A DNA stretch of 64,000 nucleotides, from contig CAYGXQ010000003.1 in NCBI GenBank assembly GCA_964354025.1, forward strand, positions 16,888 through 80,887, written 5' to 3'. The translations under genes and the position numbers were made by a program. The stretch comes from an uncultured Gammaproteobacteria bacterium. GTDB lineage: Bacteria > Patescibacteriota > Microgenomatia > 2-02-FULL-39-11. Below are positions 17,535 to 52,066 of the stretch, piece by piece. The notes below the pieces were generated by a model. The model did no database searches. It was not told the origin of the DNA and was given only the letters and a program-made list of their open reading frames with translations. Positions within the stretch are counted from its first letter, which is position 1, and each line of letters starts with the position of its first letter.

Positions 17535-17580
17535 GGGGAAAAGAATATAGCACAGGTTATAGGTTCAGTAAAGAGGAATT

Positions 17581-19806
17581 TTAGAGTTTGATGTTGGTTA
17601 CCGGTTCGCTGCCCTCATGCGGACAGTCCAGACAATAACTACCGAACATATCCGAGACGATTTGCTGTTCTTTGACTTCAGTATTGTCTTTTTGGTCAGA
17701 AGGCGCCAGGTTACGGGTGTTTTTATCAATCGTTACATTCTGTTTCAGGTTTTCCGTTTCCTTAGGGACGGTGTCTTTGATGAAATATTCATATCTGGTC
17801 GGGCAGCCGCGGTCAGCGGCATTTTTATCCGGATTGGGAGGCAGTTTCCCTGAAAGGCTGCATATTTGGGTCCCGATAATCTCCGGCGGCTGTTTCGGCC
17901 AAAGGTCAGGCTGGTTTTTCAAAATCTGAGTGAAAATTTTATTCCAAATCGGCGCCGCGCCGGTAATGCCTGAAGAGAGGTATGGATCCATCGGTTTATT
18001 ATCGTTGTTGCCGACCCAAACCGTCACCACAAAGTTAGGGGTGTAGCCAATCGTCCAATTATCTCTTTTATCGTCGGTCGTGCCGGTTTTGACCGCTACC
18101 GCGTGGTTGGGAACGATCAGAAATGAGGAGGTGCCGAACATTTGTGAACGGGCGTTGTTGTCAAGCAAAATATGAGACATGAGAAAGGTGGTTTCATTGG
18201 AAAGGACTCTTGGTCCCTGGATGAGAAGGGTAGAGGGGAAGGAAAGAGGCTTGTCAATTTCTTTAACCAAATTTTGATCCTTATACTCTTCTAGAATCTT
18301 ACCGTTATGATCTTCAACTTTCAGGATGGAAATCAGATCTTTTCTGATGCCGGAATTGGCAAAAACGCCAAAAACCTTAGCCATATCAAGTATCGTTACT
18401 TCGCCCCCGCCCAAAGTCAAAGATAAGCCGTATTTCGAAGGATCGGCAAAAGTGGAAATTCCCATTGCTGAAGCAGAGGCAATGACCGGTCCCACTCCGT
18501 TTAAAGCCATCATTTTAACCGCCGGAATATTGAAAGAATTGCCAAGAGCAAAGCGCAGTTGCACCGGACCATGGAATTTGCCGTCGTAGTTGACCGGGCA
18601 ATAAGGCTTTTGGCCGACTACCTGAAAACAGGTCGGTTCGTCAATAAAAAGAGTCGCCGGAGTCACTTTTTTTGTTTCAAAACCAACGGCGTAATTGATC
18701 GGCTTGATAGCCGAACCGGGTTGACGGAAAGAAGTGGTGACGTTGAAGTTGCCGCTGTCGGTGGCAAAATAGTCTTTTGAACCGACCATAGCCAGAATTT
18801 CTCCAGTAGCAGGGCGGGTAACCAAAGCGGCCCCGTTGCCGACCCGGTAATTTTTCAGTTTGGCGATTTCTGTAGCCACCGCGTCCTGGGCAAATTCCTG
18901 CAGCGGCAGATCCAAACTGGTAGTTACTTTCAGTCCGCCGGTTTCCACTATTTTTTCACCGTATTTTTCGACCAGTTTTTCTTTGATGTACATCACGAAG
19001 TGCGGGGCGGCAATATCACTTCTTTGAGGACGAAAATCCATCTTTTCGCTTAACGCTTCACGCTTTACGCTTTCTGTAATATAGCCGTCTTCGACCATCC
19101 GCTGGAGGACTTCTTTCTGGCGGTCGATCGCATATTCAGGATGAGCTCCGTAAGGAGAATAAACCGTTGGCGCCGCCGGCAGTCCGGCTAAAAGTGCAGC
19201 TTGCGCCAAGGATAACTGCTTAACGTTTTTACCAAAGTATTTTTCCGCGGCCGCTTCGATCCCCCAAGCAGTGCCGCCGTAAGGCACCTGGTTGAAATAC
19301 ATTTCCAGAATCTGGTCTTTGTTGTACAACCGTTCCGTCCAGAATGCCAAAATGATTTCCCTGATTTTCCGGCTTAAAGTCCGCTCCGGGGTCAAAAGAG
19401 CGGTTTTAACCAGCTGCTGGGTGATGGTTGAGCCGCCCTGCAGTTTTTGGTGAGACAGTGTTTCCTTAACCGCCCGCAAAATGCCGCCGACGAGGCTGAC
19501 GCCCTGATGGCGGTAAAAATCTTTATCTTCAATGGCAATCGTCGCCTGGCGAAGATAAAGGGGAATGTCTGCCAGTTTGACCAAGGTCCGGTTTTGCTCA
19601 GTATAAACTTCATAAAGCAGAGCACCGCTCCTATCAAAGATTTTGGTGGTTTGGGGAATTTCGTAGGAAATCAGTTTTGAAGGGCTGGGAAGACCGGTAA
19701 AAATAACAAAGAACATAAAACATAAAACAAAGAACAAAGAAAATATAATAAATAACAGGACAACTTTTTTCTTTGGTTGAAATTGTTTTGATGATTCCTT
19801 TTCCAT
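17581..19806 (-). CDS. Class A penicillin-binding protein (paralog), with Cys-containing C-terminal extension
   Basis: EDKDFYRHQG and GGSTITQQ; SAIK, SFN and KTGT motifs. Confidence 0.9.
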   Translation of the reverse strand: MEKESSKQFQPKKKVVLLFIIFSLFFVLCFMFFVIFTGLPSPSKLISYEIPQTTKIFDRSGALLYEVYTEQNRTLVKLADIPLYLRQATIAIEDKDFYRHQGVSLVGGILRAVKETLSHQKLQGGSTITQQLVKTALLTPERTLSRKIREIILAFWTERLYNKDQILEMYFNQVPYGGTAWGIEAAAEKYFGKNVKQLSLAQAALLAGLPAAPTVYSPYGAHPEYAIDRQKEVLQRMVEDGYITESVKREALSEKMDFRPQRSDIAAPHFVMYIKEKLVEKYGEKIVETGGLKVTTSLDLPLQEFAQDAVATEIAKLKNYRVGNGAALVTRPATGEILAMVGSKDYFATDSGNFNVTTSFRQPGSAIKPINYAVGFETKKVTPATLFIDEPTCFQVVGQKPYCPVNYDGKFHGPVQLRFALGNSFNIPAVKMMALNGVGPVIASASAMGISTFADPSKYGLSLTLGGGEVTILDMAKVFGVFANSGIRKDLISILKVEDHNGKILEEYKDQNLVKEIDKPLSFPSTLLIQGPRVLSNETTFLMSHILLDNNARSQMFGTSSFLIVPNHAVAVKTGTTDDKRDNWTIGYTPNFVVTVWVGNNDNKPMDPYLSSGITGAAPIWNKIFTQILKNQPDLWPKQPPEIIGTQICSLSGKLPPNPDKNAADRGCPTRYEYFIKDTVPKETENLKQNVTIDKNTRNLAPSDQKDNTEVKEQQIVSDMFGSYCLDCPHEGSEPVTNIKL

Positions 19807-36415: not shown

Positions 36416-36531
36416 ACTGATAACAGGAGTTACGTGGTATAACCTCGTTTAGATTGTCATTGCGAGCCGAAGGCGAAGCAATCCCGTTCGAGATTGCCAC
36501 GGCCCCGATTAAATCGGGACCTCGCAATGAC
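36416..36531. repeat. MITE/REP-like element family 1, copy C, between convergent rpoD and uppP
   Basis: TIRs plus conserved core. Confidence 0.75.
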
Positions 36532-39546: not shown

Positions 39547-39848
39547 ATTTTACCCGGCCGGAGCTTTTTAATCATTGGAAATATAAATTTCGATACGCTA
39601 ACAAGAACTAAAGATACAACAAAGTAAACTGCCGAGATAAATATTGCCATAACCAAAAGAAGGCGGGGTTGTTGGGGTTTTTTGAAATAATCGATCATGA
39701 CCACTATTGGTCTGTAGTAAGTAACGTATTCTCCATTGTTATACTGTTCTCGCAGTATTGGCAAACACAAAACGAGGAAGGTAAGCAAAACATTAAGCAG
39801 CCGGGGCTTTAAAAAATCTATTCTTTTCTCTACTTTCATTATCTTCAT
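39543..39848 (-). CDS. Small hypothetical 2-TM membrane protein
   Basis: ATGA overlap. Confidence 0.35.
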   Translation of the reverse strand: MKIMKVEKRIDFLKPRLLNVLLTFLVLCLPILREQYNNGEYVTYYRPIVVMIDYFKKPQQPRLLLVMAIFISAVYFVVSLVLVSVSKFIFPMIKKLRPGKI

Positions 39849-39987
39849 TTTACAATAATCAGTGGCTTCATGCCTTCCCTAAAGGACTTATTCTGCAACC
39901 AAATAATTGAGTTTGATTTTGATTTAAACAGCATTAAAATTCTATTTTCCGAACTTAAAATATCAATTGAAAATAATTTCACTTCTG

Positions 39988-40611
39988 CTATTTCTTTTCA
40001 CTAACAGCTTTCCATAATCGCATTATACCGTAACCAATTAGTAGACAGCCTACAATTCCATTTAAAAATTTAACTAATAAAATCGGAACCGCTTCCCTGA
40101 CAAGAGAAAATATAATTACGGAAGAGCCCATAAAAATAAATGTGGCTAAACCAGTTCCTATACCAAACAATAATAATTCTCTTTTAGAATAACCATATTC
40201 AACTGCTTTGGAGGTAATCAAACTGGTGAAGAAAACGATAGTCATTGGACTGGATATTGTTAATAAAAATACTGATGTGAAGCTTGTGATGATGCTGGAA
40301 CCCCCTGTCGTCACTGTGTTTGAAGCGTTTCCAATAATTGCTCCCTTTAGTATTAAATATCCGAATGCTGACAACACCAATGAACTGATTATCCCGAATA
40401 TCTTTTTGAACTTTTTGTGTTCAAGTAATTTTCCTATACCGAAAATTGCCAACGATATATACAGATAATCAACAGTGGTAACAGCAAATACACCCGCTAA
40501 ACCATCCAAAAATGTCTTCTGAAGTGCCAAATTAACGATAAAGAAAAAAACAGGTCCAATAGCCAATTGAAGTGTTAGTCCAGTTAATAGACCATTTTTA
40601 AGTTCTTTCAT
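39988..40611 (-). CDS. LysE/RhtB-family amino-acid exporter
   Basis: 6-TM, LTLQLAIGPV N-terminal motif. Confidence 0.55.
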   Translation of the reverse strand: MKELKNGLLTGLTLQLAIGPVFFFIVNLALQKTFLDGLAGVFAVTTVDYLYISLAIFGIGKLLEHKKFKKIFGIISSLVLSAFGYLILKGAIIGNASNTVTTGGSSIITSFTSVFLLTISSPMTIVFFTSLITSKAVEYGYSKRELLLFGIGTGLATFIFMGSSVIIFSLVREAVPILLVKFLNGIVGCLLIGYGIMRLWKAVSEKK

Positions 40612-40714
40612 AAATAACTCTATTGCTGAGTAAGTATTGCCAGTGTAGCTTTAACAGAAGAATTATCAGTATTTATTAGCTTCACCCTGCCTTTAAAACG
40701 ATTACGAAGCGGGG

Positions 40715-40885
40715 TCAAAAATTCATCTGCCATGAGGGAGTCAGTACAAATACCTCAGCAAAATCAACCACCACTTCCTCATTTTCCGGAATGTCCTTGA
40801 GCACCGGTTAAAAAGCTAATAATGCTTCTTTTTCTGAAGGACGGGAAACTAAGGTAGTGCCAAATTTTTTCAACTGTATAATCAT
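40715..40885 (-). pseudogene. Degraded MazE/PemI (AbrB-fold) antitoxin remnant with in-frame TAA
   Basis: MIIQLKKFGTTLVSRPSEKEALLAF*PVLKDIPENEEVVVDF resembles Kis/PemI N-terminal and C-terminal segments. Confidence 0.3.
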
Positions 40886-40969
40886 ATTACATCCTCTCTT
40901 TTATTTTAACTTATCAATCTCAACTTATACAGTCTGTAAAAGATCCTGGAAAAGAGATGGTAAAATTAG

Positions 40970-41248
40970 ATGATGGTTGCCAGATGGTCGGGGAAAGTGA
41001 CTAAAAATAGTATTGCTCTTGACCTGGAAGAGGGCGTTTTTACTTGGGATAATCCCCGTAAAATTGCCCAAAGTTTGAAACAATCAGCGCTAAACAGTAC
41101 CAGAAGAAAAACCAATTCCTTCCAATCCGCCATGAGTATGCTGATTTTTTACATCAACCGGGCCGGCAAGAATTTAAGACCCGAAAGAAGGAAAATCCTC
41201 AAGCAGGCTAAAATTGAATTGAGAAAGTTGAAAGATGACTCTTTTTAA
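40970..41248 (+). CDS. DUF3175-like small protein
   Basis: RWSGKVT...DLEEGVFT...SAMSMLIFYINRAGKNL pattern recalled for DUF3175. Confidence 0.5.
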   Translation: MMVARWSGKVTKNSIALDLEEGVFTWDNPRKIAQSLKQSALNSTRRKTNSFQSAMSMLIFYINRAGKNLRPERRKILKQAKIELRKLKDDSF

Positions 41249-41332
41249 ACAGTCTAGATAGAAAATGGTTTATACTCGTTGAGTTGAACGATTTTAGAAC
41301 TTTCAAATTTGTTTAAAATATAAAATAAAGTT

Positions 41333-41824
41333 CTAATTAATTGTAATAAACATCCTATTCAAATAACACGAATTTTCTTCTTTTTCATCATTAGGATATT
41401 TCAATAGGCATTCATTAACTATTTTTAGATCGTTGACCCTTGCTCGGTAACAAATATTAAGGTCGTGTACATATGTAGAATAAATTTTATCAACTTCTTC
41501 ACGTGCCATAAAACATGAACCATCACTCTTCATATTTAAATCACATAACCTTTTTTCAGCCTCAGCTTGTTTATTAGATACCGCACGATAACAATTATCA
41601 AAATTAGCTTCAGAAGGTTTGCTATATCTTGCTATGTATTTTGCTAAGATAGACATTCTATTGTTAAGGAAAAGCCAAACAACCAAGATGGATCCGATAA
41701 TAACAATTACCAGCACCAACAAAGTTATAAAAATAAATAATAACTTACGGATTTTAGATGGTATATTCATAAAACTATTATACCAATATCTAGAGTTAAA
41801 AATAGTGACTTGAGAAATGGTCAT
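41333..41824 (-). CDS. Hypothetical membrane-anchored Cys-rich protein
   Basis: TM plus 6 Cys. Confidence 0.4.
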   Translation of the reverse strand: MTISQVTIFNSRYWYNSFMNIPSKIRKLLFIFITLLVLVIVIIGSILVVWLFLNNRMSILAKYIARYSKPSEANFDNCYRAVSNKQAEAEKRLCDLNMKSDGSCFMAREEVDKIYSTYVHDLNICYRARVNDLKIVNECLLKYPNDEKEENSCYLNRMFITIN

Positions 41825-41990
41825 TATTTAGGATAACTGACTCGTCCGGCCCCGATGTGCTTATTCTTCTATGAATTCCAGCGGGTAGACTACTATTCCA
41901 TAAACGCTTCCCTACAAAGTCCTCTAGTTTCTCCAGCCGGATAGACAGCATATGAAAACAATACCACTATTTGAACGATTAGATGGTTTT

Positions 41991-42224
41991 TCATCTCTTT
42001 TTCCATCTGGGAAGTTTTGGCATCATTTCGTCGGCCATTTTTTGGGCTTCTTCTCTAGTTTTTCCCATCAGTTTCATGGCGGCTCCTATGCTTCCTTCCC
42101 TTACCTGTTCATATGTTTTCAGCGCTCCGGTTTCTTGGTCTTGGCAATAGATACAATATCTTCCATCAAACTTTGACGTTGTTTTCTCATCCAGCGGCAT
42201 TCCGCAACTTTCACATATTTTCAT
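41991..42224 (-). CDS. Zinc-ribbon domain small protein
   Basis: CESCGMPL...YCIYC. Confidence 0.55.
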   Translation of the reverse strand: MKICESCGMPLDEKTTSKFDGRYCIYCQDQETGALKTYEQVREGSIGAAMKLMGKTREEAQKMADEMMPKLPRWKKR

Positions 42225-42515
42225 CGTTTCACCTCCTTGTATATTATTCTAATCTTACTATTTTATCACAAAAAAAGGGGCGTCACGGCACTCCTTATTA
42301 TTTCTTTGCTTCCCCTAGTAGACATGTTCAGGAACAGGAAAGTTGAAATAGAAATCGACATTACTCAAATTAAAACAATTTACGAAAACTTTTGTTTATC
42401 ACAGTTTGCCTAATTTATTGAGTCGCTCCACCAAACGATTATCAAACAATCAAAATATCCTCCGATAAATAGATGTGGGTAATTAAGATAACAACATCGC
42501 CAATTATCCAAAAAA

Positions 42516-43994
42516 ATGTTAAAATCCAATTCAGCAATTATGTCAACGATCATGGAAAGTAAACAAGTTGAACTCGAAAATGTCGAAAATAAAACAATCT
42601 CAGGAAAGGAGCTTTCTAGCGATTTATGGGAAATAATCACTGCCTTCAGCAATGCAGACGGAGGATTAATTTCATTAGGAGTTGACCCGAAGGGTAACAG
42701 GCTTGGAGTAAACCCTGATTTCATAGACAAACTTCAAGCAGATGTGGTTACCCTTTGCGGTAGCGGTTTTAATCATCGGTTGTACCCCGGTATTAGTACC
42801 GATCAGGACAAAGTAATCAATATTTATATCCCACCAGCCCCAGCTCAATATCGCCCTATTTACTCAACTAGTAGAAATCTGCCCCGAGGAGCAAGAGTGC
42901 GTGTTGGAACATCTAATGTACAAGTCGACGATGAATGGATACGTCGCTTTGCGATTTCTGCAAGAGGAGGAGCTGAACTTATGCCTTTTAAAGAGAACTA
43001 TAAAAAATACTTCGACGAAGGTATCATCTCCAAATACTTGGATATTGTAATAAAAAAAAGAGGTCCTGTTTACACTGGGCTATCCATCGATGAAATTTTA
43101 ACAAAGTTAAGAGCAATTACTAATGAAAAAGAGATAACAATGTTCGGACTTTTAGCTTTTAGTAATGCCACAGGTCTACAAGAATTAACAGCACCTACTG
43201 TCAATATTGCAGTTACGCACTATGCGGGTACAAACAAAATTAATCCTGATGATATTGCTGAGGTTTCCTTAGATGACAGAGAATTTTCAGGGAACGTTGT
43301 AAACCAGTTCGAGGAATCATTAAAATTTATAGAATCCAAACTTCCAGCGAGAAGTAGAATTGATACGGAAGGTAAAAGAACAATCTACTTGGCAATACCA
43401 ACTTTGGCACTTAGGGAAACCTTAGCAAACGCAATTGTCCACAGAGATGACACAACTTTCAAAGGTAGAATACAAATTGATATATACAATGACAGGATTG
43501 AATTTGCTAACCCCGGACGTAGTTTAATTCCATTAGAACTGCTTGAAACCGCTCACCCAGAAACAAGAAATCCCCTACTAATGAGTTATATGAGGGACTT
43601 AAACATAACTGAACACAGAGGTAGGGGTATAAGAACAATAAAGGTTTCCCTAAAAGCTGCCGGTCTCGCAGAGCCTACTTTTGTTCACAAACATGATTGG
43701 TTTGTAGCAACAATTTTCAGCTCCGCTTTCATTAAAGACGCCGATCAAGCGTGGTTACAACAATTCCAAAATCAGAAGTTAAACGAACATCAATTTAATG
43801 CCCTCGTTCATGTTAAACATAACCCAAATGGAATCAGCAATTCTGAATACAGAAACCTAAACAATATGACAAACGTCAGAGACGACATCAGGGCTAAAAA
43901 GGAATTAGTTAAGTTAACGAAACTTGAACTATTCAACAAAGTTGGAGAAAAACGTTATCGTCGTTACATACTAAACCCAGAACTAACAGAATAA
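42516..43994 (+). CDS. AlbA_2 (divergent AAA / Schlafen-like) + HATPase_c_4 domain protein (putative ATP-dependent DNA-binding regulator); true start may be the ATG at 42552
   Basis: N-terminal ESKQVELE...ELSSDLWEIITAFSNADGGLISLGV; C-terminal LANAIVHRD...IQIDIYNDRIEFANPG. Confidence 0.65.
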   Translation: MLKSNSAIMSTIMESKQVELENVENKTISGKELSSDLWEIITAFSNADGGLISLGVDPKGNRLGVNPDFIDKLQADVVTLCGSGFNHRLYPGISTDQDKVINIYIPPAPAQYRPIYSTSRNLPRGARVRVGTSNVQVDDEWIRRFAISARGGAELMPFKENYKKYFDEGIISKYLDIVIKKRGPVYTGLSIDEILTKLRAITNEKEITMFGLLAFSNATGLQELTAPTVNIAVTHYAGTNKINPDDIAEVSLDDREFSGNVVNQFEESLKFIESKLPARSRIDTEGKRTIYLAIPTLALRETLANAIVHRDDTTFKGRIQIDIYNDRIEFANPGRSLIPLELLETAHPETRNPLLMSYMRDLNITEHRGRGIRTIKVSLKAAGLAEPTFVHKHDWFVATIFSSAFIKDADQAWLQQFQNQKLNEHQFNALVHVKHNPNGISNSEYRNLNNMTNVRDDIRAKKELVKLTKLELFNKVGEKRYRRYILNPELTE

Positions 43995-44101
43995 TTCTAT
44001 CGACCTTTCTATCGACCCCCTTTTTATGCGTGTAATACCACCAAATGCCCTACAACGTCTTTTAGTCTTCTATCGACCTTTCTATCGACCAACTATCGAC
44101 C
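43995..44101. repeat. Iteron-like direct repeats (5 copies of TATCGACC; 23-nt unit TTCTATCGACCTTTCTATCGACC twice)
   Basis: Seen in sequence immediately after the stop of 42516..43994. Confidence 0.55.
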
Positions 44102-44317
44102 ATATTAAAGAGTCCGATATGATGCGATAAAACCATTCGACACAATCTTAAATTATGCCGATGGTCAACTTTGGCTCGAGAAACGTAGTTTTAATATAAC
44201 CAAGCGATTCCTGCGTATTATAGAGATATTTCAGGACGCTAAGTTTGAGCAACAAAAGACTGGAGATCGAAAAAGTCAAACCCTCTCTTAATTCCTGCAT
44301 AAATTCACGAATAAATC

Positions 44318-44346
44318 TTGACTAATCTTATATAATCTTATATAGT
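44318..44346 (+). promoter_or_regulatory. Promoter TTGACT-N17-TATAGT embedded in palindrome TTGACTA(ATCTTATATA)x2 GTCAA upstream of Fic 44365
   Basis: Seen in sequence. Confidence 0.45.
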
Positions 44347-44364
44347 CAATATATAAGAAAACAT

Positions 44365-45411
44365 ATGAATAAACTAGATTCACGATTAAAAGACATTCAG
44401 ACGGACATCTGGAAAGATATTGCTGCAATTGACGAGTTAAAAGGCAGATGGACGGCTGGTGCCCATTTTCATCCGCAGGTTTTGACCCGGCTAAAACGCT
44501 CCGTTCTAATTACTTCTACGGGAGCATCCACAAGAATAGAAGGAGCAAAATTATCCGATGAGGATATTGAGAAACTGATGAGAGGCATATCAATTGAAAA
44601 ATTTGCTGATAGGGATAAACAGGAGGTAAAAGGATATTTTGAACTGCTGCAAAATGTCTTTAATTCATGGCCAAGTCAAATTTTTAATGAAAGCGCGATT
44701 AAACACTTCCACAAAGAAATGTTGAAGTATGTGGAAAAGGATAAACAGCATAGAGGTAATTATAAAACCATGGAAAACAAGGTGCACATGATAAATGAAA
44801 AAAGCCAATCAATCGGTATTCTATTTAATACAACACCTGCTTACCTGACGCCTATTTATATGCAGGAATTGGTTGAATGGACCGTAAAAGCTTTAAAAGA
44901 AAAGTCTTATCATCCTATCCTTACAATAGGAAATTTCCTTGTTGAATTTCTGCAAATCCATCCGTTTCAGGATGGAAACGGCAGAATATCACGAATCCTG
45001 ACAAACCTTCTTTTACTTAAAGAAGGTTATTTGTATATGCCTTATGTTTCTCATGAGAAATTGATTGAGGATAATAAACCAGATTATTACCTGGCTTTGC
45101 GAAACAGCCAAAAAACATTCAAGACAAAGATTGGCCCATGGCTGCAATTCTTTGTAAAAATCTTGCTTTTACAATCACAAATTGCCGTAGATTTGCTGAC
45201 TTCTGAAACAATAGAAAAAATATTATCGCCAATACAACTAAAAGTATGGAATTATTTTCTGAAAGTAAAACAGGCAGCTCCGCTTGATATATCCAAAAAC
45301 TCCAATGTTGCTAGACCTACGGTTAATCAAGTTCTCTCTAAACTTCTAAAACTCAAGAAAATAGAGCGGATTGGGTTAGGAAGAAGCACAAGATACCGCT
45401 TGATTAAATAA
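44365..45411 (+). CDS. Class II Fic family protein (intramolecular inhibitory helix, C-terminal wHTH)
   Basis: HPFQDGNGRISR Fic motif; STRIEG inhibitory motif. Confidence 0.85.
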   Translation: MNKLDSRLKDIQTDIWKDIAAIDELKGRWTAGAHFHPQVLTRLKRSVLITSTGASTRIEGAKLSDEDIEKLMRGISIEKFADRDKQEVKGYFELLQNVFNSWPSQIFNESAIKHFHKEMLKYVEKDKQHRGNYKTMENKVHMINEKSQSIGILFNTTPAYLTPIYMQELVEWTVKALKEKSYHPILTIGNFLVEFLQIHPFQDGNGRISRILTNLLLLKEGYLYMPYVSHEKLIEDNKPDYYLALRNSQKTFKTKIGPWLQFFVKILLLQSQIAVDLLTSETIEKILSPIQLKVWNYFLKVKQAAPLDISKNSNVARPTVNQVLSKLLKLKKIERIGLGRSTRYRLIK

Positions 45412-45494
45412 GAATTTGAATAAAAATTGGCTTGGTGCCTAAAATGTTAAGTTTATGTAACTGCTTAAAAATCCTATTTTAGTATAATTCAAAC

Positions 45495-46277
45495 ATGAAG
45501 CTCTTAAAATCGAGCAAGTGGAAATTAGCATTTAAGGTAACACCCTTTGTTGCCGTAATTATTCTTCTAAAACTGTTCGCCCATCAGTCAGGTTGGGAAT
45601 TTCTGACACTTAATACTCTTTTCGGGGCTATCATTTCGGCTAATGTATTTTTAGTGGGTTTCTTGATATCCGGAGTATTGGTTGACTATAAAGAGGCAGA
45701 AAAGATTCCGGGAGAGTTATCATGCAGTTTAGAAGTTTTAACCGATGAGTGCTATATCGTTTATAAAAACAAGAAAAGTAAGGCAGCCATAAACTTTATG
45801 AAAACCATTCATGATCTAACTGCATCAGTTATCAAGTGGCTGCATAAAAAAGAAAGAACGGAAACCGTGTTAAACAAAATCACTGGGTTAAACGACCACT
45901 TTTTGGCTCTTGAACCTCTGACACAAGCAAATTTTATCGTTCGCCTGAAAAACGAACAACACAATCTCAGAAGGCTTATCACGAGAATTCATACCATCAG
46001 GGAAACATCATTTAATCCGGCAGGTTATGCCATAGCTGAAATTATCTCGGTAATCTTGTGCATCGGCCTGATATTTACCAAAATAGACCCTTATTATGAA
46101 AGCGTCTTCTTTGTGGCTTTTGTTTCTTTTATCCTTATCTATATGGTGCTTCTTATCAGGGATTTGGATAATCCGTTCGGTTACTACGAAAAAGAAAATT
46201 ACGCTGACGAGGTGTCCTTAAAACCTCTATTTGATTTGGAAAAACGGATACCCCATGATTTGGATAAATTGAAGTAA
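45495..46277 (+). CDS. Hypothetical membrane protein
   Basis: TM helices. Confidence 0.4.
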   Translation: MKLLKSSKWKLAFKVTPFVAVIILLKLFAHQSGWEFLTLNTLFGAIISANVFLVGFLISGVLVDYKEAEKIPGELSCSLEVLTDECYIVYKNKKSKAAINFMKTIHDLTASVIKWLHKKERTETVLNKITGLNDHFLALEPLTQANFIVRLKNEQHNLRRLITRIHTIRETSFNPAGYAIAEIISVILCIGLIFTKIDPYYESVFFVAFVSFILIYMVLLIRDLDNPFGYYEKENYADEVSLKPLFDLEKRIPHDLDKLK

Positions 46278-46480
46278 AACCGTTGCCAACAGCTTCGTAC
46301 AACGCTCTATAATCGCTTTAAACATGCGATTTACCAAAACCTAATGATCAGATAAAGATATTGATACGAACTGTTACTGTATAAAGCTCCCTAATTAATT
46401 TGTAAAACTACTCTCAGTAAACAAACAGCCTATCGAGTTTCCCCGATAAGCTGTTTAATAATCCTTAAAGAAATAAAAGA

Positions 46481-47236
46481 TTATTTCTTTTTTCCTGCAT
46501 TTTCACCAGCTTGAGAATTGGGATTAAATGGTTTCTGTAAGCCTGGAGCTGTTAAAATACCTTTACTTTCTATTCCGCTCTTATATAATTGACAGGCTTT
46601 AGAATCAAGTAATACTGTTACCTTATTATTGAAGGGATCACAATCCACCTGATCTAGTACCCCGTCATTATCTGTATCAAGACTAATTTCATTTACCGAC
46701 ACAGCATCTAAGTACATACCAAATGAATCATCTGCTCCGGTTTCGGTAAATTCAAGGCGTATAACTCCTCCGGTACCCATTCTTGTTACAGTTTCATCTT
46801 TCCAGGCACTTTCACTTGTCCATGATGCTATATGAGTACCAATAGTCTCGTCTCCCCATTTTACAACCATCTGATTGTCCGGCATGTTGTGTCTTGGTAT
46901 CCAGGAATATTTGATTTCATATTTATACCCTAGTTTGGTAGGAATATCCTGATAGATTCTAGTCGGATGATAGGAATCTAACTCGGCATGCTGATTACCT
47001 TCACGGGATATTTGATCAAAGTTGTCTTGGATTTCAAGTAACCCTGTACCATAAGGATCCGGTCTAAGATAGTCAACACTCCACCCAAGGCCTACTGTAC
47101 CAGTTGGAAAAGTATCATACATGTAAACAACGGGCGTTTCAAAACCACCATTAATAACTAGTTCGGCTGCAGAAACGTTGGTGGCAAATACGAAAACTAA
47201 CATTAAACCACCCAAAATTGATAATATTTTATTCAT
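46481..47236 (-). CDS. Secreted protein with jelly-roll-like domain and Ca-binding DTDNDGVLD repeat
   Basis: Signal peptide; ELVINGGFE...GW pattern. Confidence 0.4.
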   Translation of the reverse strand: MNKILSILGGLMLVFVFATNVSAAELVINGGFETPVVYMYDTFPTGTVGLGWSVDYLRPDPYGTGLLEIQDNFDQISREGNQHAELDSYHPTRIYQDIPTKLGYKYEIKYSWIPRHNMPDNQMVVKWGDETIGTHIASWTSESAWKDETVTRMGTGGVIRLEFTETGADDSFGMYLDAVSVNEISLDTDNDGVLDQVDCDPFNNKVTVLLDSKACQLYKSGIESKGILTAPGLQKPFNPNSQAGENAGKKK

Positions 47237-47275
47237 TTATTTCACCTCCTTCCTTTTTCATCCTACTTTTTGCAT

Positions 47276-47310
47276 AAAAAAACCACGACTTTCGTTGTGG
47301 TTTATTTTTA
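47276..47310. terminator. Bidirectional rho-independent terminator (A-run, CCACGAC-TTTC-GTTGTGG, T-run) downstream of tRNA-Asn
   Basis: Hairpin and flanking runs seen in sequence. Confidence 0.55.
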
Positions 47311-47428
47311 TACTGCCCTGTAATATGAATTTTTCATATACTAAAAGGCAGTAGGAATTATATTGTAAGTATAGCTTTTTATTATCAGAACGTCATGTGC
47401 ATGATTAGTGTTCCCTATTAACTAATTG

Positions 47429-47696
47429 CTCCCCCGGGAGGATTCGAACCTCCAACCTTCTTCTTACAAGTAACCTTTCGTTACCGAAAGACTTGGACTA
47501 TCTTATTCCCGATAATATCGGGATCGGGTATATAGTCTCTACACATTTATGATGCGCCGACTGGCGCGTCAATTTAGCTCGGGATAACCCCGATTCAATC
47601 GGGGGTCCCCCGAATTAGCCCGATTTTCCATCCCGATTTTCATCGGGACGCTGCCTTTTTCGACAGGAAGCCGCTCTACCATTGAGCTACAGGGGA
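47429..47696 (-). tRNA. tRNA-Asn(GUU) split by a group I intron; exons 47663-47696 and 47429-47466
   Basis: Spliced product UCCCCUGUAGCUCAAUGGUAGAGCGGCUUCCUGUUAAGAAGAAGGUUGGAGGUUCGAAUCCUCCCGGGGGAG folds as a canonical 72-nt cloverleaf and resembles E. coli tRNA-Asn (U1-A72, G73, loop CUGUUAA). Confidence 0.75.
47467..47662 (-). ncRNA. Group I (IC3-like) self-splicing intron, 196 nt, no ORF
   Basis: Follows exon U35 and ends in G. P1 pairs exon CUGU with intron GCAG; P2 is UCCCGAU-GAAA-AUCGGGA. The GUGUAGAGACUA...AAGAUAGUCC core resembles the Azoarcus tRNA-Ile and Anabaena tRNA-Leu introns. Confidence 0.65.
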
Positions 47697-47931
47697 ACGT
47701 AAGATTCGCCTTTGGCGAATCAACGTTCCACAACGTTTATCCCGATTAATCGGGATATTACGTTGGGAATATTAACGTACGATTGGCATTTTATCATCAA
47801 ATAGAGCATAAATCCACCCCATTATCTGCCGTTGTACATCTGCCTAACTAAATCTGATGGCAAACACTCCATATGGATGAATATTTTTCGGTATTTCCTA
47901 TATGGAGAGTAAGAATAAACAGTATTGAAAC

Positions 47932-49284
47932 TTATATAGTAACTTGATTTTCTACCTTTGTTTGAAATAGTTTTGCAATAGACACAGTATTGGGTATAAA
48001 TATGAATTTTTTCCCTGAATGAATTTTATCCAATAATTGTTTTTTTACTAAAAACATTAAATCTGATCTAGCGGTTTCGTAAGATAATCTGTTAATTGTT
48101 TTATAAGTAGTTATGTCAATAGTTTTATCTCTATTTGCATTCAATTCCTGCAATAGAGATGCTTGTCTTTCATTATATTCACCTAACTGGCCAGCGATCT
48201 TTTGAATAATTTTTTCTTTTTCAAGCTTGGTTTCATAATGGGCTATAAATTCTTTGATTGATAATACAATCGCTTTTAAAGAATAAGATAAAAAATAGGT
48301 TAAATCGTTTTCGTCATGTTCTGCATACAAATATGAATTATCATATTGTATTTTTGATTTTTTGATTATTCTTGAAACAGAAAGATACTGAAACAACCAA
48401 TAATTTTTTCTAAGTAAATACCAGTAAAATAAAGCCCTTGCGGTTCTACCGTTTCCATCTACAAACGGATGAAGATAGGCTAACCAAAAATGTAGAATAC
48501 TCGCTTTAATTACTGGATGAATAAACTCCTCTTCTAACTCATCTGAATTGGCAAAAATTATAAACTTTTCCAATTCTTTCTCCATGATATTGCCGGTCGG
48601 AGGAGTATACACTATTTCTCCGGTTAGCCTGTTTACAATATTTATTCCATCAGAATCAATTCTTAACCTACCGGAGTCAGCGTCATTCTCTAAAGTTCCG
48701 GCAGTAATATTTTTTTGAATATCCAGTAAGATATTTAAATTTAGTTTTAAATCTTTCCAGTCCATCAGTCTCTGCATGACTTGATAATTGTTTATAATCA
48801 TCTGTTCATCTCTGTTTCGGGCTTTTCTTTGGCTTAAAAGCATCTCCTTTGCTATTTTTCTTGAGGTATTTGCACCCTCAATCTGACTTGACGCGATTGC
48901 TTCTTCTGTTAAACTGTTTATTATCATTTGACTTTTTTGGGTAGCAGTTGGTTTCTCAGTAGTAGAACTTAAAAATCCACTCGTGTTAGAATCTATTAAA
49001 CTAAGCTTCTGATACATTGATTTAGTAATTGTAAATCTAAAATTTTGATTATTGCTGCCTCTTACAGGTGTAATTTCTGCGTTAGACATTCTTGAGAACT
49101 TTAAATAAGCCCAAGCTTCTTCTGGAGAAAATCCTTCTGGTATCGGATAGTGTTTGAATTTTTCCCAATAAACATATTCCTTATCAGCTTGCTTCACTAG
49201 TTCTCTTAAGCCATCTGAATGAACGGCTTTTTTTATCAGATCTTCTGTAAAATACCTAACCCAATTTGGTGGTCTAGCAATCAT
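47932..49284 (-). CDS. Class II Fic family protein (450 aa, Fic_N-like N-terminus, C-terminal wHTH)
   Basis: HPFVDGNGRTAR; SSQIEG inhibitory motif. Confidence 0.85.
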   Translation of the reverse strand: MIARPPNWVRYFTEDLIKKAVHSDGLRELVKQADKEYVYWEKFKHYPIPEGFSPEEAWAYLKFSRMSNAEITPVRGSNNQNFRFTITKSMYQKLSLIDSNTSGFLSSTTEKPTATQKSQMIINSLTEEAIASSQIEGANTSRKIAKEMLLSQRKARNRDEQMIINNYQVMQRLMDWKDLKLNLNILLDIQKNITAGTLENDADSGRLRIDSDGINIVNRLTGEIVYTPPTGNIMEKELEKFIIFANSDELEEEFIHPVIKASILHFWLAYLHPFVDGNGRTARALFYWYLLRKNYWLFQYLSVSRIIKKSKIQYDNSYLYAEHDENDLTYFLSYSLKAIVLSIKEFIAHYETKLEKEKIIQKIAGQLGEYNERQASLLQELNANRDKTIDITTYKTINRLSYETARSDLMFLVKKQLLDKIHSGKKFIFIPNTVSIAKLFQTKVENQVTI

Positions 49285-49460
49285 ATTCCTCCTAACTACT
49301 AATTTGCTACTAATTTTTACTAAATTAGTAGTAAGAGTATAACATATAATTTGCCAATTTGCTACTAATTGATACTAGTCTAGTAGTTAATAGCTCTATT
49401 ATTACTGCTTTTGTTAATAATTTGACTATTCGTCAGTAAGGGGTTCGATCTTCTGATATA

Positions 49461-50018
49461 ATGACTCTAAATCCTAACAAAGAAGGTGAGAATATGAAGA
49501 AATGTAAAAGTTGCAAGTCAGAAATTGATTCCAAAGCAACGAAATGCCCACACTGTCGGACAGATCAAAGAATCTGGTTTCGAAGACATCCGATCTTAAC
49601 TTTTTTAATTGTACTTTTTATTGCTCCTTTTATTTTGGCGGGTATGACTGGCTCGTCACCGCCATATAGTAATGGAGGATCAACTACTCCTGTACCGACA
49701 AAACAATCAACTTTTAATGCAGGTGTAAATTTCACCGGTACTCAATTTGTTATCAGCAATCTGGAAAAGTATGCCTGTGAGAATGCGAGGATGAAGGTAA
49801 ATGGAGATTATTCTTTAGACGGTTATAATCTTGAATCTGCTCTAGACTCAACTGTAAAAACAGGAACTGCCACTGTTTACAAAGTCGGAGCAGGGCAATT
49901 TACGAAAGGAGATGGTACAAGATTTAATCCTTTTGCTACCAAACCTCTGAATTTCAGTATTAGCTGTCGGGGCAATAATGAATTAAGTTCTGCTTTTGGA
50001 TACTGGGAGTTTAAGTAA
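49461..50018 (+). CDS. Hypothetical protein: N-terminal zinc ribbon (CKSCKS...CPHC), TM, extracytoplasmic domain
   Basis: Cys pairs and TM. Confidence 0.4.
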   Translation: MTLNPNKEGENMKKCKSCKSEIDSKATKCPHCRTDQRIWFRRHPILTFLIVLFIAPFILAGMTGSSPPYSNGGSTTPVPTKQSTFNAGVNFTGTQFVISNLEKYACENARMKVNGDYSLDGYNLESALDSTVKTGTATVYKVGAGQFTKGDGTRFNPFATKPLNFSISCRGNNELSSAFGYWEFK

Positions 50019-50127
50019 TGTTCCGGAGAGCTTATTATTATTTAAATTAAGATTTTAATTGAGGCTAAATTTTGAAAATATCTGGTGAATTACATAAAAT
50101 AGACATAAGACAAAACTTAACATCCTC

Positions 50128-50166
50128 TTGACAGATGTAAGGAATAGATTGTATAATCCTTACATC
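50128..50166 (+). promoter_or_regulatory. Promoter TTGACA-N18-(TG)TATAAT with 10-bp perfect inverted-repeat operator (GATGTAAGGA / TCCTTACATC) flanking the -10, upstream of Fic 50188
   Basis: Seen in sequence. Confidence 0.5.
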
Positions 50167-50187
50167 TAGTATAAAGATGTTAGGCTT

Positions 50188-51345
50188 ATGAAAATTGGTA
50201 AACTCGTCCAACAACCCAGTGGATATCAGGCATTTATCCCAAACAAGTTCCCTCCAGAGGAGCAGATTGCCCTGAGTTCTAAAACTCAGCAGCTTCACGC
50301 CAAGGCTGCCCTTATGCTGGGGAAGCTAGACGGTATTACCCAGTTATTGCCTGACCTCGATTTCTTCATTTTTATGTACATCCGTAAAGAAGCGGCCCGG
50401 TCAAGTGAGATTGAAGGTACCCAGGCAACTATTATTGATGTCATTAAAAGTGAGGCGCAAATTGAAAGTCGTTTTCCCCAAGATGTCGAGAGAATTGTCC
50501 ACTATATTCATGCGATGGAATATGGCTTAAAACGATTGGAAACTTTGCCGTTATCACTTCGGTTTATTCGGGAAATCCACAAGGTACTGATTAGCGGCAC
50601 TATTGACGCTCCTGGTAAAACACCGGGAGAGTTTAGGACTTCTCAAAACTGGATCGGCGGGGGTTCTCCTAATACTGCCAAATTTGTACCACCAACACAC
50701 GTAGAAATGAATCGATGTCTTGATGATTTTGAAAAGTTTCTGCACGCTACTGACGAATACCCACCACTTATTAAGGCGGCTTTGGCCCATGCCCAATTTG
50801 AGACAATCCACCCTTTCTTAGATGGTAATGGAAGAACAGGACGGCTCCTAACCACTTTTTATCTTTGTAAATTGGGGATTCTTGAGAGGCCAGTTCTTTA
50901 TCTTTCTGAATACTTTTTGAATAATCAAAAGACGTATTACGGATCATTGAATTCATATCATCAAGAAGAGGCTGACATCTCCGGATGGTTGGATTTCTTT
51001 TTAGATGGTGTGGCTATTATTGCTGCTGAAGCGATTGAAGCATCAAAAAAAATTAATGTCTTACGTCAAAAAGATACTATTAAAATTCAATCTTTGGGTC
51101 GAAGAATAAAAACAGGCATGATGGTATTAGAAAATCTCTATAAGCTGCCTATTATTAGTGTGCGAAAAGTTGAAGAATGGACAGAACTTTCTCGTCCTCA
51201 GGCCAACGACTTGGTTAAAAAGCTTGTAGAATTAGGAATTCTTGAACAAAGAGATAAAGATATTGAGTATGGTAGGGAATTTTGGTATAAAAAATATCTG
51301 GATTTGTTTGTAAGCAAAGAAGAAGTTAAAAAATCGAATGAATAA
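50188..51345 (+). CDS. Class II Fic family protein (Fic_N + Fic + wHTH)
   Basis: [12 protein letters not shown]; SSEIEG; GYQAFIP Fic_N motif. Confidence 0.85.
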   Translation: MKIGKLVQQPSGYQAFIPNKFPPEEQIALSSKTQQLHAKAALMLGKLDGITQLLPDLDFFIFMYIRKEAARSSEIEGTQATIIDVIKSEAQIESRFPQDVERIVHYIHAMEYGLKRLETLPLSLRFIREIHKVLISGTIDAPGKTPGEFRTSQNWIGGGSPNTAKFVPPTHVEMNRCLDDFEKFLHATDEYPPLIKAALAHAQFETIHPFLDGNGRTGRLLTTFYLCKLGILERPVLYLSEYFLNNQKTYYGSLNSYHQEEADISGWLDFFLDGVAIIAAEAIEASKKINVLRQKDTIKIQSLGRRIKTGMMVLENLYKLPIISVRKVEEWTELSRPQANDLVKKLVELGILEQRDKDIEYGREFWYKKYLDLFVSKEEVKKSNE

Positions 51346-52066
51346 ACCTGACTTTACCCTCGATAAAATAAAATTTGCATCTGATGGGCCAACATTTGAA
51401 AAAGCCGTAGCTTTGTATGAAAGCGGCAAAGTTATCCAAGTTGAAGAAGGTATCCGATCGTATACAGCCGTTGTTATGGGTACAAAACCATACCGCGTCT
51501 CGGTGGAAGCACAGAATTTTAGATATGCTTATTGTTCTTGTTATCTGGGTAAAAATGACACATATTGTAAACATATGTTGGCTTTGGCAATTTATGTGGT
51601 TCAAGACGGGAGGCCGTTAACCGATAATGATAAGAAACTGATACAAAATCCAGCTTGTAGTGGTAAATTGGGAACTTTATCAGGTAGCGAGCTATCAGCT
51701 ATAAAACATGCAATTTCTACTTCCCTACGTTACATCAAAGCTTATACTGGTCCGTCTCGTACTTGGTTTGCCTATCAAAACTCACTTTTCGAAGGTTGCA
51801 ATCGGCTATCTGCTATTATCTCCGATTTGCCAGTAAGTGTTCAAACAGCTGAGTTGTTGGTTGATATATTGTTGAGATTGGATAAGAAACTATGCACTGG
51901 CGGAGTTGATGACTCGGATGGTGAAGTGGGTGGATTCATTGAAGAAGCGGTGAGCGTGCTACAAGAATTTGTGAAATTGGATCCGAATTGTGTTAACGCT
52001 TTCGATAAGCTGAAAAAAAGAGAGATATGTTTTGGCTGGGAGGAATCTTTGTTGAAAACTTATTGA
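51338..52066 (+). CDS. SWIM zinc-finger domain protein, overlapping the Fic stop by 8 nt
   Basis: CSCYLGKNDTYCKH = CxCx9CxH. Confidence 0.7.
   Translation: MNKPDFTLDKIKFASDGPTFEKAVALYESGKVIQVEEGIRSYTAVVMGTKPYRVSVEAQNFRYAYCSCYLGKNDTYCKHMLALAIYVVQDGRPLTDNDKKLIQNPACSGKLGTLSGSELSAIKHAISTSLRYIKAYTGPSRTWFAYQNSLFEGCNRLSAIISDLPVSVQTAELLVDILLRLDKKLCTGGVDDSDGEVGGFIEEAVSVLQEFVKLDPNCVNAFDKLKKREICFGWEESLLKTY

Follow-up and report, generated by a model that had tools for sequence, protein, structure and literature searches.

The minus strand of a 64,000-nucleotide (nt) stretch of contig CAYGXQ010000003.1 (assembly GCA_964354025.1; the whole stretch is referred to here as the window) carries, between positions 47429 and 47696, a gene for tRNA-Asn(GUU) that is very likely split by a compact group I intron. 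Exon 1 (47663–47696, 34 nt, TCCCCTGTAGCTCAATGGTAGAGCGGCTTCCTGT) contains the 5' strand of the acceptor stem, the D-arm, the 5' strand of the anticodon stem, and the loop bases C32, U33, G34, and U35. Exon 2 (47429–47466, 38 nt, TAAGAAGAAGGTTGGAGGTTCGAATCCTCCCGGGGGAG) continues with U36, A37, and A38, followed by the 3' strand of the anticodon stem, the variable loop, the T-arm, the 3' strand of the acceptor stem, and G73. When the exons are joined, ARAGORN reads a 72-nt tRNA-Asn(gtt) with a normal cloverleaf and all four arms; the program lists 73 nt, as it adds one base after G73. The coordinates of the exons, the strand, the 72-nt cloverleaf, and G73 are exactly those given in an initial annotation made from the letters alone. 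The acceptor stem has 7 bp including one U·G pair, and the D-arm stem is GCUC/GAGC. The anticodon stem consists of 4 bp with a G27·A43 mismatch at its top, and it closes the loop CUGUUAA. The variable loop is 5 nt long, and the T-arm reads GGAGG-UUCGAAU-CCUCC. The CCA end is not encoded, and the bases after the discriminator G73 are CAA. Read from the sequence, the body is of the Asn type, with U1-A72 and G73; the identity elements of asparaginyl-tRNA synthetase include G73 and the anticodon. The first 24 nt of exon 1 are identical to those of the tRNA-Asn in the WWE3 genome GCA_000503835.1.

The intron (47467–47662, minus strand, 196 nt) lies between U35 and U36. It follows a uridine and terminates in the omega-G at 47467, in agreement with the boundaries drawn in the initial annotation. 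A local Rfam scan of positions 47350–47800 matched RF00028 (Intron_gpI) over the full model (1–253) with 65.3 bits (gathering score 50) and an E value of 1.9e-16, so that the search proposed along with that annotation returned a match above the gathering score. Other local Rfam matches (SpF41, CRISPR-DR32, YrlA, and others) all had E values above 1 and were dismissed as chance. When the whole 64-kb window was scanned, either at the gathering threshold or at E <= 0.01, Rfam gave no match; the loss of RF00028 in longer inputs is most likely due to the speed filters of Rfam cmscan. The behavior of ARAGORN was comparable. In its default mode it found no tRNA across the 64-kb window, and with introns allowed it miscalled the gene as tRNA-Asp(gtc), placing an intron of 175 nt at 37/38.

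The exact splice junction was deduced from the bases at position −1 and at omega. At the eight possible junctions in the anticodon loop these are C/A, C/C, U/U, G/U, U/G, C/U, G/A, and A/A. A uridine at −1 together with a terminal G occurs only at the fifth junction, which is 35/36 and yields the 7-nt loop CUGUUAA. Both the 37/38 call of ARAGORN and a tRNA-Thr(UGU) with an intron at 33/34 were rejected on this basis; neither boundary of the tRNA-Asp(gtc) model fits the U/G rule, and that model needs a distorted variable region. There is no open reading frame in the 196 nt, which bears out the earlier statement that the intron is too small for a homing endonuclease. Because it is too short for a protein and its helices fill the whole length, no such enzyme is encoded; vertical inheritance of the intron is likely. 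A second copy of the intron core was not found in the 64-kb window.

The secondary structure was written from the window sequence and examined in an alignment of the window intron with 93 relatives (94 sequences); all positions given are on the minus strand, and the helices were assessed by counting covarying pairs. P1 (47651–47666) pairs the exon bases C32 to U35 and the intron base C1 with the intron bases G8 to G12 (GGCAG), so that U35 (47663) forms a U·G wobble with the G at 47654 at the 5' splice site. The pairing of exon CUGU with intron GCAG (47654–47651), which had been noted before, is present and backed by the comparative data. In 94/94 sequences its four pairs do not vary, and covariation is seen at the extension pair (CG 66, AU 9, UG 6, GC 5, UA 1). 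P2 (47630–47649) is the hairpin GUCCCGAU-GAAA-AUCGGGAU with a GNRA loop. It contains the hairpin UCCCGAU-GAAA-AUCGGGA of the initial annotation, and this too holds up in the alignment, with double-sided changes at all 8 pairs and an invariant G and A in the loop. The 5' strand of P3, AUCGGG (47619–47624), pairs with CCCGAU at 47528–47523 (3' strand, 47523–47528), and P3 covaries at three pairs, for example GC 53 / AU 40. P4 (UCGGGG/UCCCGA) surrounds the P5 hairpin CCCCGAU-UGA-AUCGGGG (47579–47613). P4 is 98.9% paired and almost invariant, and P5 has double changes in 6 of 7 pairs. P6 (GC/GU) and the P6a hairpin UGA-GCGCC-AGUC-GGCGC-UCA occupy 47543–47578; both P6 pairs are invariant, and all 8 pairs of P6a covary.

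Following J6/7 (AAAUGUGUAGA), the guanosine-binding helix P7 is formed by its 5' strand GACUAU (47532–47537) and its 3' strand AUAGUC (47496–47501), which creates the pseudoknot with P3. The two strands are complementary and invariant in 94/94 sequences. The search pattern required P7, J6/7, and part of P3, which partly accounts for their invariance and makes it uninformative for covariation. The P8 hairpin CCCGAU-AUU-AUCGGG (47508–47522) covaries at all 6 pairs. P9.0 (AAG/CUU) encloses the P9 hairpin UCUUUCG-GUAA-CGAAAGG, which has a GNRA loop (47468–47494). P9.0 has 3 bp, its CUU being the 3 nt just before omega-G, and its middle pair covaries (AU 50, GC 29, CG 9, UA 3). P9 is 95.9% paired, with double changes in 6 of 7 pairs. 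The alignment shows conservation of the U·G wobble, of omega-G, and of the GNRA loops L2 and L9. No convincing P10 pairing of the 3' exon UAA with the guide region was found.

Over all helices of the alignment, standard pairs occupy 90.1% of the cells, compared with 33–45% when the 3' partners are slid by 1–3 columns. The covariation score is 0.434, compared with 0.065–0.118 in the slid controls, and changes on both sides are present in 40 of 64 pairs. On four of five measures none of 500 shuffles reached the observed value; the fifth, the number of double-change pairs, was reached by 16 of 500. Folding of the intron alone with RNAfold gave a minimum free energy of −78.2 kcal/mol (z = −5.55 against shuffles), and P2, P3, P4, P5, P6a, P8, and P9 were recovered without any comparative input. 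RF00028, ARAGORN, and the comparative structure thus bear out the central claim of the initial annotation, that this is a tRNA-Asn(GUU) gene split by a compact group I intron.

The relatives were collected by scanning one genome per species with the core pattern GTAGAGACTATATACC-N12-42-GATAGTCC. At least 120 related loci were obtained, nearly all from metagenome-assembled genomes (MAGs) of Patescibacteria/Microgenomates. The groups among the loci listed are Gottesman-, Woese-, Roizman-, Davies-, Levy-, Ames-, Curtiss-, and Collierbacteria, with some Paceibacteria and Saccharimonadales. The host is tRNA-Asn in about 100 of these loci and tRNA-Asp in the remainder. After joining the exons of 96 sequences (the window and 95 loci), ARAGORN called 86 as Asn(GUU) and 10 as Asp(GUC), and the split was always at 35/36. 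The pattern used for exon 2 failed on 18 further loci, one of which ends too early. The other 17 read as Asn or Asp, and they failed only on account of a T-loop with GTCCGA or a similar sequence. In a neighbor-joining tree of the intron cores, which is too rough to carry a conclusion on whether the Asp hosts are one clade, seven Asp introns cluster and three fall among Asn introns. This hints that there may have been more than one host switch between these tRNAs, which have the CUGU half-loop in common.

The variant T-loop is an observation of its own. GTCCGA is present in about 17 of the at least 120 loci (one has GTGCGA), so that position 55, normally a U (pseudouridine) in tRNA, is a C. These loci include L003, L023, L031, L035, L046, L048, L050, L052, L053, L056, L061, L078, L087, L101, L102, and others. 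The titles of the genomes are a separate matter. Third-party MAGs with the title "uncultured Gammaproteobacteria" or "Pseudomonadales", the 615-kb chromosome OZ246397.1 among them, are the source of about 35 of the at least 120 loci (L001, L004, L005, L018, L021–L023, L041, L072, and about 25 more). We suspect that these titles are wrong for carriers of an intron of the Patescibacteria type.

The closest of the loci listed is L096, from Candidatus Microgenomates bacterium PFL108 (JALHWS010000194.1), which has the same tRNA, insertion site, and intron subfamily. Identity to the window is 100% for the tRNA and 91% for the intron. The next relatives listed, from Gottesmanbacteria and Amesbacteria, have introns that are 75–81% identical. 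The rpoD and dnaG genes of the window are 66–75% identical at the DNA level to Gottesmanbacteria contigs and MAGs, and in those Gottesmanbacteria contigs the same tRNA is situated ~2–3 kb from rpoD. The closest loci and the identity of rpoD and dnaG, with the tRNA nearby, indicate that the host is a Gottesmanbacteria-like bacterium of the Microgenomatia (Patescibacteria). Besides dnaG-rpoD, the window encodes guaA, as well as two adjacent genes for penicillin-binding proteins of the PBP1A family (793 and 741 amino acids; 15153–19806, minus strand).

In the PFL108 intron, a C-G pair in P5 of the window intron is replaced by U-A, which is a compensatory change. The loops L5 and L6a are altered, one base differs in J8/7, and the whole P8 is swapped for another perfect hairpin. 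None of these differences breaks a helix, and this is the pattern that would be expected of a ribozyme under selection.

The helices of the window intron are unusually repetitive. P2, P3, P5, and P8 are built from the hexamer CCCGAU/AUCGGG, and P4 nearly so. With 8 copies of CCCGAT/ATCGGG, the window intron has the most of the 96 sequences; the PFL108 intron has 6, and most relatives have 0 or 1. Hairpins of the form CCCGAT-N2-6-ATCGGG occur five times in the 64-kb window, whereas 0.03 are expected from shuffling. Three of them lie in the intron, one lies upstream of the tRNA (47741–47754), and one (CCCGAT-TAA-ATCGGG, 36504–36518) lies in the spacer after rpoD. The upstream copy belongs to a 65-nt insertion of two tandem hairpins directly upstream of the tRNA (47706–47770, minus strand), which is absent from the PFL108 locus. 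This insertion may or may not be part of the feature. Its hairpins (47765–47731, CAACGTAATATCCCGATTAATCGGGATAAACGTTG; 47728–47695, GAACGTTGATTCGCCAAAGGCGAATCTTACGTTC) are palindromic. The stem of the first, UCCCGAU/AUCGGGA, is that of the intron helices P2 and P8, and the second runs into the tRNA, taking in its first two bases. P8 is made of CCCGAU in several relatives as well, and AUCGGG/CCCGAU is the commonest P3 of the family; for these reasons, much of the hexamer repetition appears to be inherited. A functional meaning of the repeat, be it as a mobile or gene-converting palindrome that replaces helices, as an alternative pairing between leader and intron, or as a palindrome bound by a protein, strikes us as improbable. 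If true, the pairing or the palindrome would modulate how the only tRNA-Asn precursor folds and splices.

Further upstream of the tRNA there is a non-coding block (47788–47896) that is 91% identical in the PFL108 locus and 74% identical in locus L008. No open reading frame of more than ~30 amino acids was found in the block, and its role may be that of a promoter or leader, or of a small RNA. The tRNA is surrounded by a low-GC stretch (~40000–52000), where the GC content is 33–39%, compared with 40–48% in most of the rest of the window. This stretch contains three Fic/DOC genes (44365–45411, 47932–49284, and 50188–51345), a Schlafen AlbA_2/HATPase_c_4 gene (42516–43994), and an open reading frame with a SWIM finger. 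The distance from the tRNA to the homolog of window positions 39566–39868 is ~3.1 kb in the PFL108 locus, compared with 7.6 kb in the window. The low-GC stretch looks like a variable island beside the tRNA. No integrase was seen among the open reading frames scanned, and the tRNA 3' end is not repeated in the 64-kb window, as it would be at the attachment site of an integrated island.

Since the intron is built like a working group I intron, the standard pathway is adopted here as the proposed mechanism. Transcription would yield a precursor of ~270 nt, in which the intron would fold into P1 to P9 with the P3/P7 pseudoknot. The exon CUGU would pair with the internal guide GCAG, the U·G wobble of U35 marking the 5' splice site. 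A free guanosine bound in P7 would attack after U35, and omega-G, placed by P9.0, would next take the guanosine site. The 3'-OH of U35 would then attack after omega-G, ligating the exons into the 72-nt tRNA-Asn, which would still need the addition of CCA. The two exons are probably kept in place by the anticodon stem, as is said to be the case for the Anabaena pre-tRNA-Leu intron in work of Zaug and colleagues from 1993.

We hold with high confidence that the locus is a Microgenomatia tRNA-Asn(GUU) gene interrupted at 35/36 by a compact group I ribozyme without a homing endonuclease. The basis is the sequence, the cloverleaf, the Rfam match, the structure backed by covariation, and homology to an intron that was shown to self-splice. 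The gene with its intron is probably functional. Guanosine-dependent self-splicing was demonstrated in vitro for a homolog from Candidatus Woesebacteria (locus L024, described below) and is predicted by homology for the window copy; that this copy splices, and that it serves as the working tRNA-Asn gene of the cell, we infer.

Some observations count against this interpretation. A promoter scan gave no convincing sigma-70-like site upstream of the tRNA, and the 65-nt hairpin insertion separates the conserved upstream block from the gene. The hexamer common to P2, P3, P5, and P8 could allow mispairing and slower folding. The anticodon stem has the G27·A43 mismatch, yet the closest relatives have it too. 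P7 and J6/7, as elements required by the search pattern, give no covariation evidence. The view is also one of 64 kb of a genome, and an intron-less tRNA-Asn elsewhere is possible. Taken at their strongest, the insertion, the lack of a clear promoter, and the position of the gene at the border of a variable low-GC region with three Fic genes would fit a decaying copy, in which the intron or the tRNA is dead and another tRNA-Asn outside the window serves the cell. We consider decay unlikely, because the tRNA is identical to that of the PFL108 locus, the changes in the intron relative to that locus are all compensatory, confined to loops or junctions, or the swap of a whole hairpin, and the catalytic-core blocks, the U·G wobble, and omega-G are intact. 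The flanks of the at least 120 related loci yielded no tRNA-Asn without an intron. In the survey of 35/36 group I introns in Patescibacteria tRNA genes by Nakagawa et al. (mSystems 2026, PMC13011429; preprint July 2025), moreover, a genome rarely has copies both with and without an intron for the same anticodon.

The boundaries and the product could also have been drawn differently, as Asp(GUC) with an intron at 37/38 or as Thr(UGU) with an intron at 33/34. The former is what ARAGORN with its intron option (-i) proposes, and in Table 1 of PMC13011429 ARAGORN and tFind make the same kinds of calls on related genes. In those models, however, the U at −1, the G at omega, or both are missing, and in the Asp model of ARAGORN the variable region is oversized and the anticodon stem poor. 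For a junction at 35/36, the U·G wobble of P1 and P9.0 are conserved or covary, the tRNA body with U1-A72 and G73 matches tRNA-Asn of Patescibacteria, and the spliced product of homologous genes was sequenced and confirmed 35/36 (PMC13011429). Boundaries other than 35/36 are thus very unlikely. That the locus is a chance cluster of GC-rich hairpins between tRNA-like fragments, with no ribozyme at all, might be suggested by the empty Rfam scans of the whole window and by four helices made from one repeated hexamer. Such a resemblance is hardly conceivable against the local RF00028 match and the at least 120 homologs, in which the core blocks are conserved and the helices covary and one of which is experimentally validated; the RF00028 score, the alignment, and the covariation refute it. 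The reading as a split tRNA-Asn(GUU) gene with a group I intron is retained.

The value of this example lies mainly in annotation, and its scientific novelty is small. The tRNA-Asn gene is overlooked or misread by ARAGORN at default settings and by Rfam scans of whole sequences; such a genome would wrongly appear to be without a tRNA-Asn, and its completeness score would suffer. The distribution of hosts is modestly new, in that it extends the published picture from 95 complete genomes. In draft Microgenomatia genomes, most hosts of the compact 196-nt subfamily, which was tested in tRNA-Asp alone, are tRNA-Asn genes (about 9 to 1). With its redundant helices, the intron could also be of use as a small natural model for the study of folding.

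Among the well known bacterial introns, those of Anabaena/Nostoc tRNA-Leu(UAA), inserted at 34/35, and of Azoarcus tRNA-Ile(CAU), of subgroup IC3, differ from the window intron in host tRNA and insertion position. The initial annotation had matched the core to the Azoarcus and Anabaena introns. There is a fair sequence likeness in J6/7-P7 and in the 3' strand of P7, and to this extent the match stands; no subgroup assignment follows from it. The window intron is without P7.1/P7.2 between P7 and the 3' strand of P3, and its junctions are like those of IC3-labeled introns, which is a likeness and not a class assignment. Among the rows listed from Table S5 of PMC13011429, the bacterial introns labeled IC3 resemble the window intron in the J6/7-P7 motif GUGUAGAGACU and in the P4/P6 junctions.

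Introns at 35/36 in tRNA-Asn(GUU) have been described before. Among 95 complete Patescibacteria genomes, PMC13011429 reports 15 cases in tRNA-Asn(GUU) and 3 in tRNA-Asp(GUC), which makes the former the dominant type of tRNA intron in this phylum. The initial annotation had called an Asn(GUU) host with an insertion at 35/36 unusual; this view has to be given up in light of that survey and of our own scan, in which the species-level genomes with the subfamily of the window intron numbered at least 120. Among 4,934 complete bacterial genomes, 28 introns were found at 35/36, of which 19 are in Patescibacteria and 25 belong to subgroup IA, and IC was assigned to no Patescibacteria tRNA intron (PMC13011429). 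Two of the 35/36 introns splice precisely in vitro, as verified by sequencing of the spliced product, and an omega-G-to-C mutant of the tRNA-Asp precursor blocks exon ligation, with a stall at the intermediate of intron and 3' exon (PMC13011429). The same authors found that tRNAscan-SE, ARAGORN, and tFind miss or miscall 35/36 introns, and by their account the type was catalogued as Asn.4Ug by Williams 2020 (tFind preprint). The exact window intron sequence is not among the rows listed from their supplement, and among the rows listed from their tables the core motif of the compact subfamily occurs only in two Microgenomatia tRNA-Asp introns.

The introns in tRNA-Asn of other Patescibacteria classes (tFind type Asn.4Ug) obey the same rule of U at −1 and omega-G as the window intron, and they too are missed or miscalled by standard finders. 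The 234-nt tRNA-Asn(GUU) intron of GCA_016700035.1, which was spliced in vitro, shares the host tRNA and the 35/36 site with the window. In contrast to the window intron, however, these introns belong to a larger subfamily with the core GUUCAGAGACUAGAG and extra helices between P7 and the 3' strand of P3 and P8. They are of subgroup IA1 where this is shown, and some contain HNH endonuclease genes.

Orthologous tRNA-Asn introns, with no annotation apparent, are present in MAGs of Gottesman-, Ames-, Roizman-, Davies-, Levy-, and Woesebacteria. The most informative comparison is with the intron in the tRNA-Asp(GUC) gene of Candidatus Woesebacteria GW2011_GWF1_31_35 (L024; CP011214.1 = GCA_001029755.1), as this genome contains the spliced tRNA-Asp precursor letter for letter. 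Like the window intron, it is inserted at 35/36 after CUGU, is 196 nt long, has the same set of helices with GNRA loops L2 and L9, and lacks an endonuclease gene. The core blocks GGCAGC (the guide), GGCUAAUUCGGGG, AUCCCGAGCUAAAU, UAAAUGUGUAGAGACUAUAUACC, and AGAUAGUCC are identical in the two. The differences lie in the host tRNA, in the 3' exon, which starts with CAC compared with UAA in the window, and in the sequences of P2, P5, P6a, P8, and P9, and the identity over the aligned columns is ~60%. Since PMC13011429 reports both 35/36 introns within genes for tRNA-Asn and for tRNA-Asp and the splicing in vitro of this Woesebacteria homolog, the kind is already known and a close homolog is validated, and the window intron is an ordinary new example of it.

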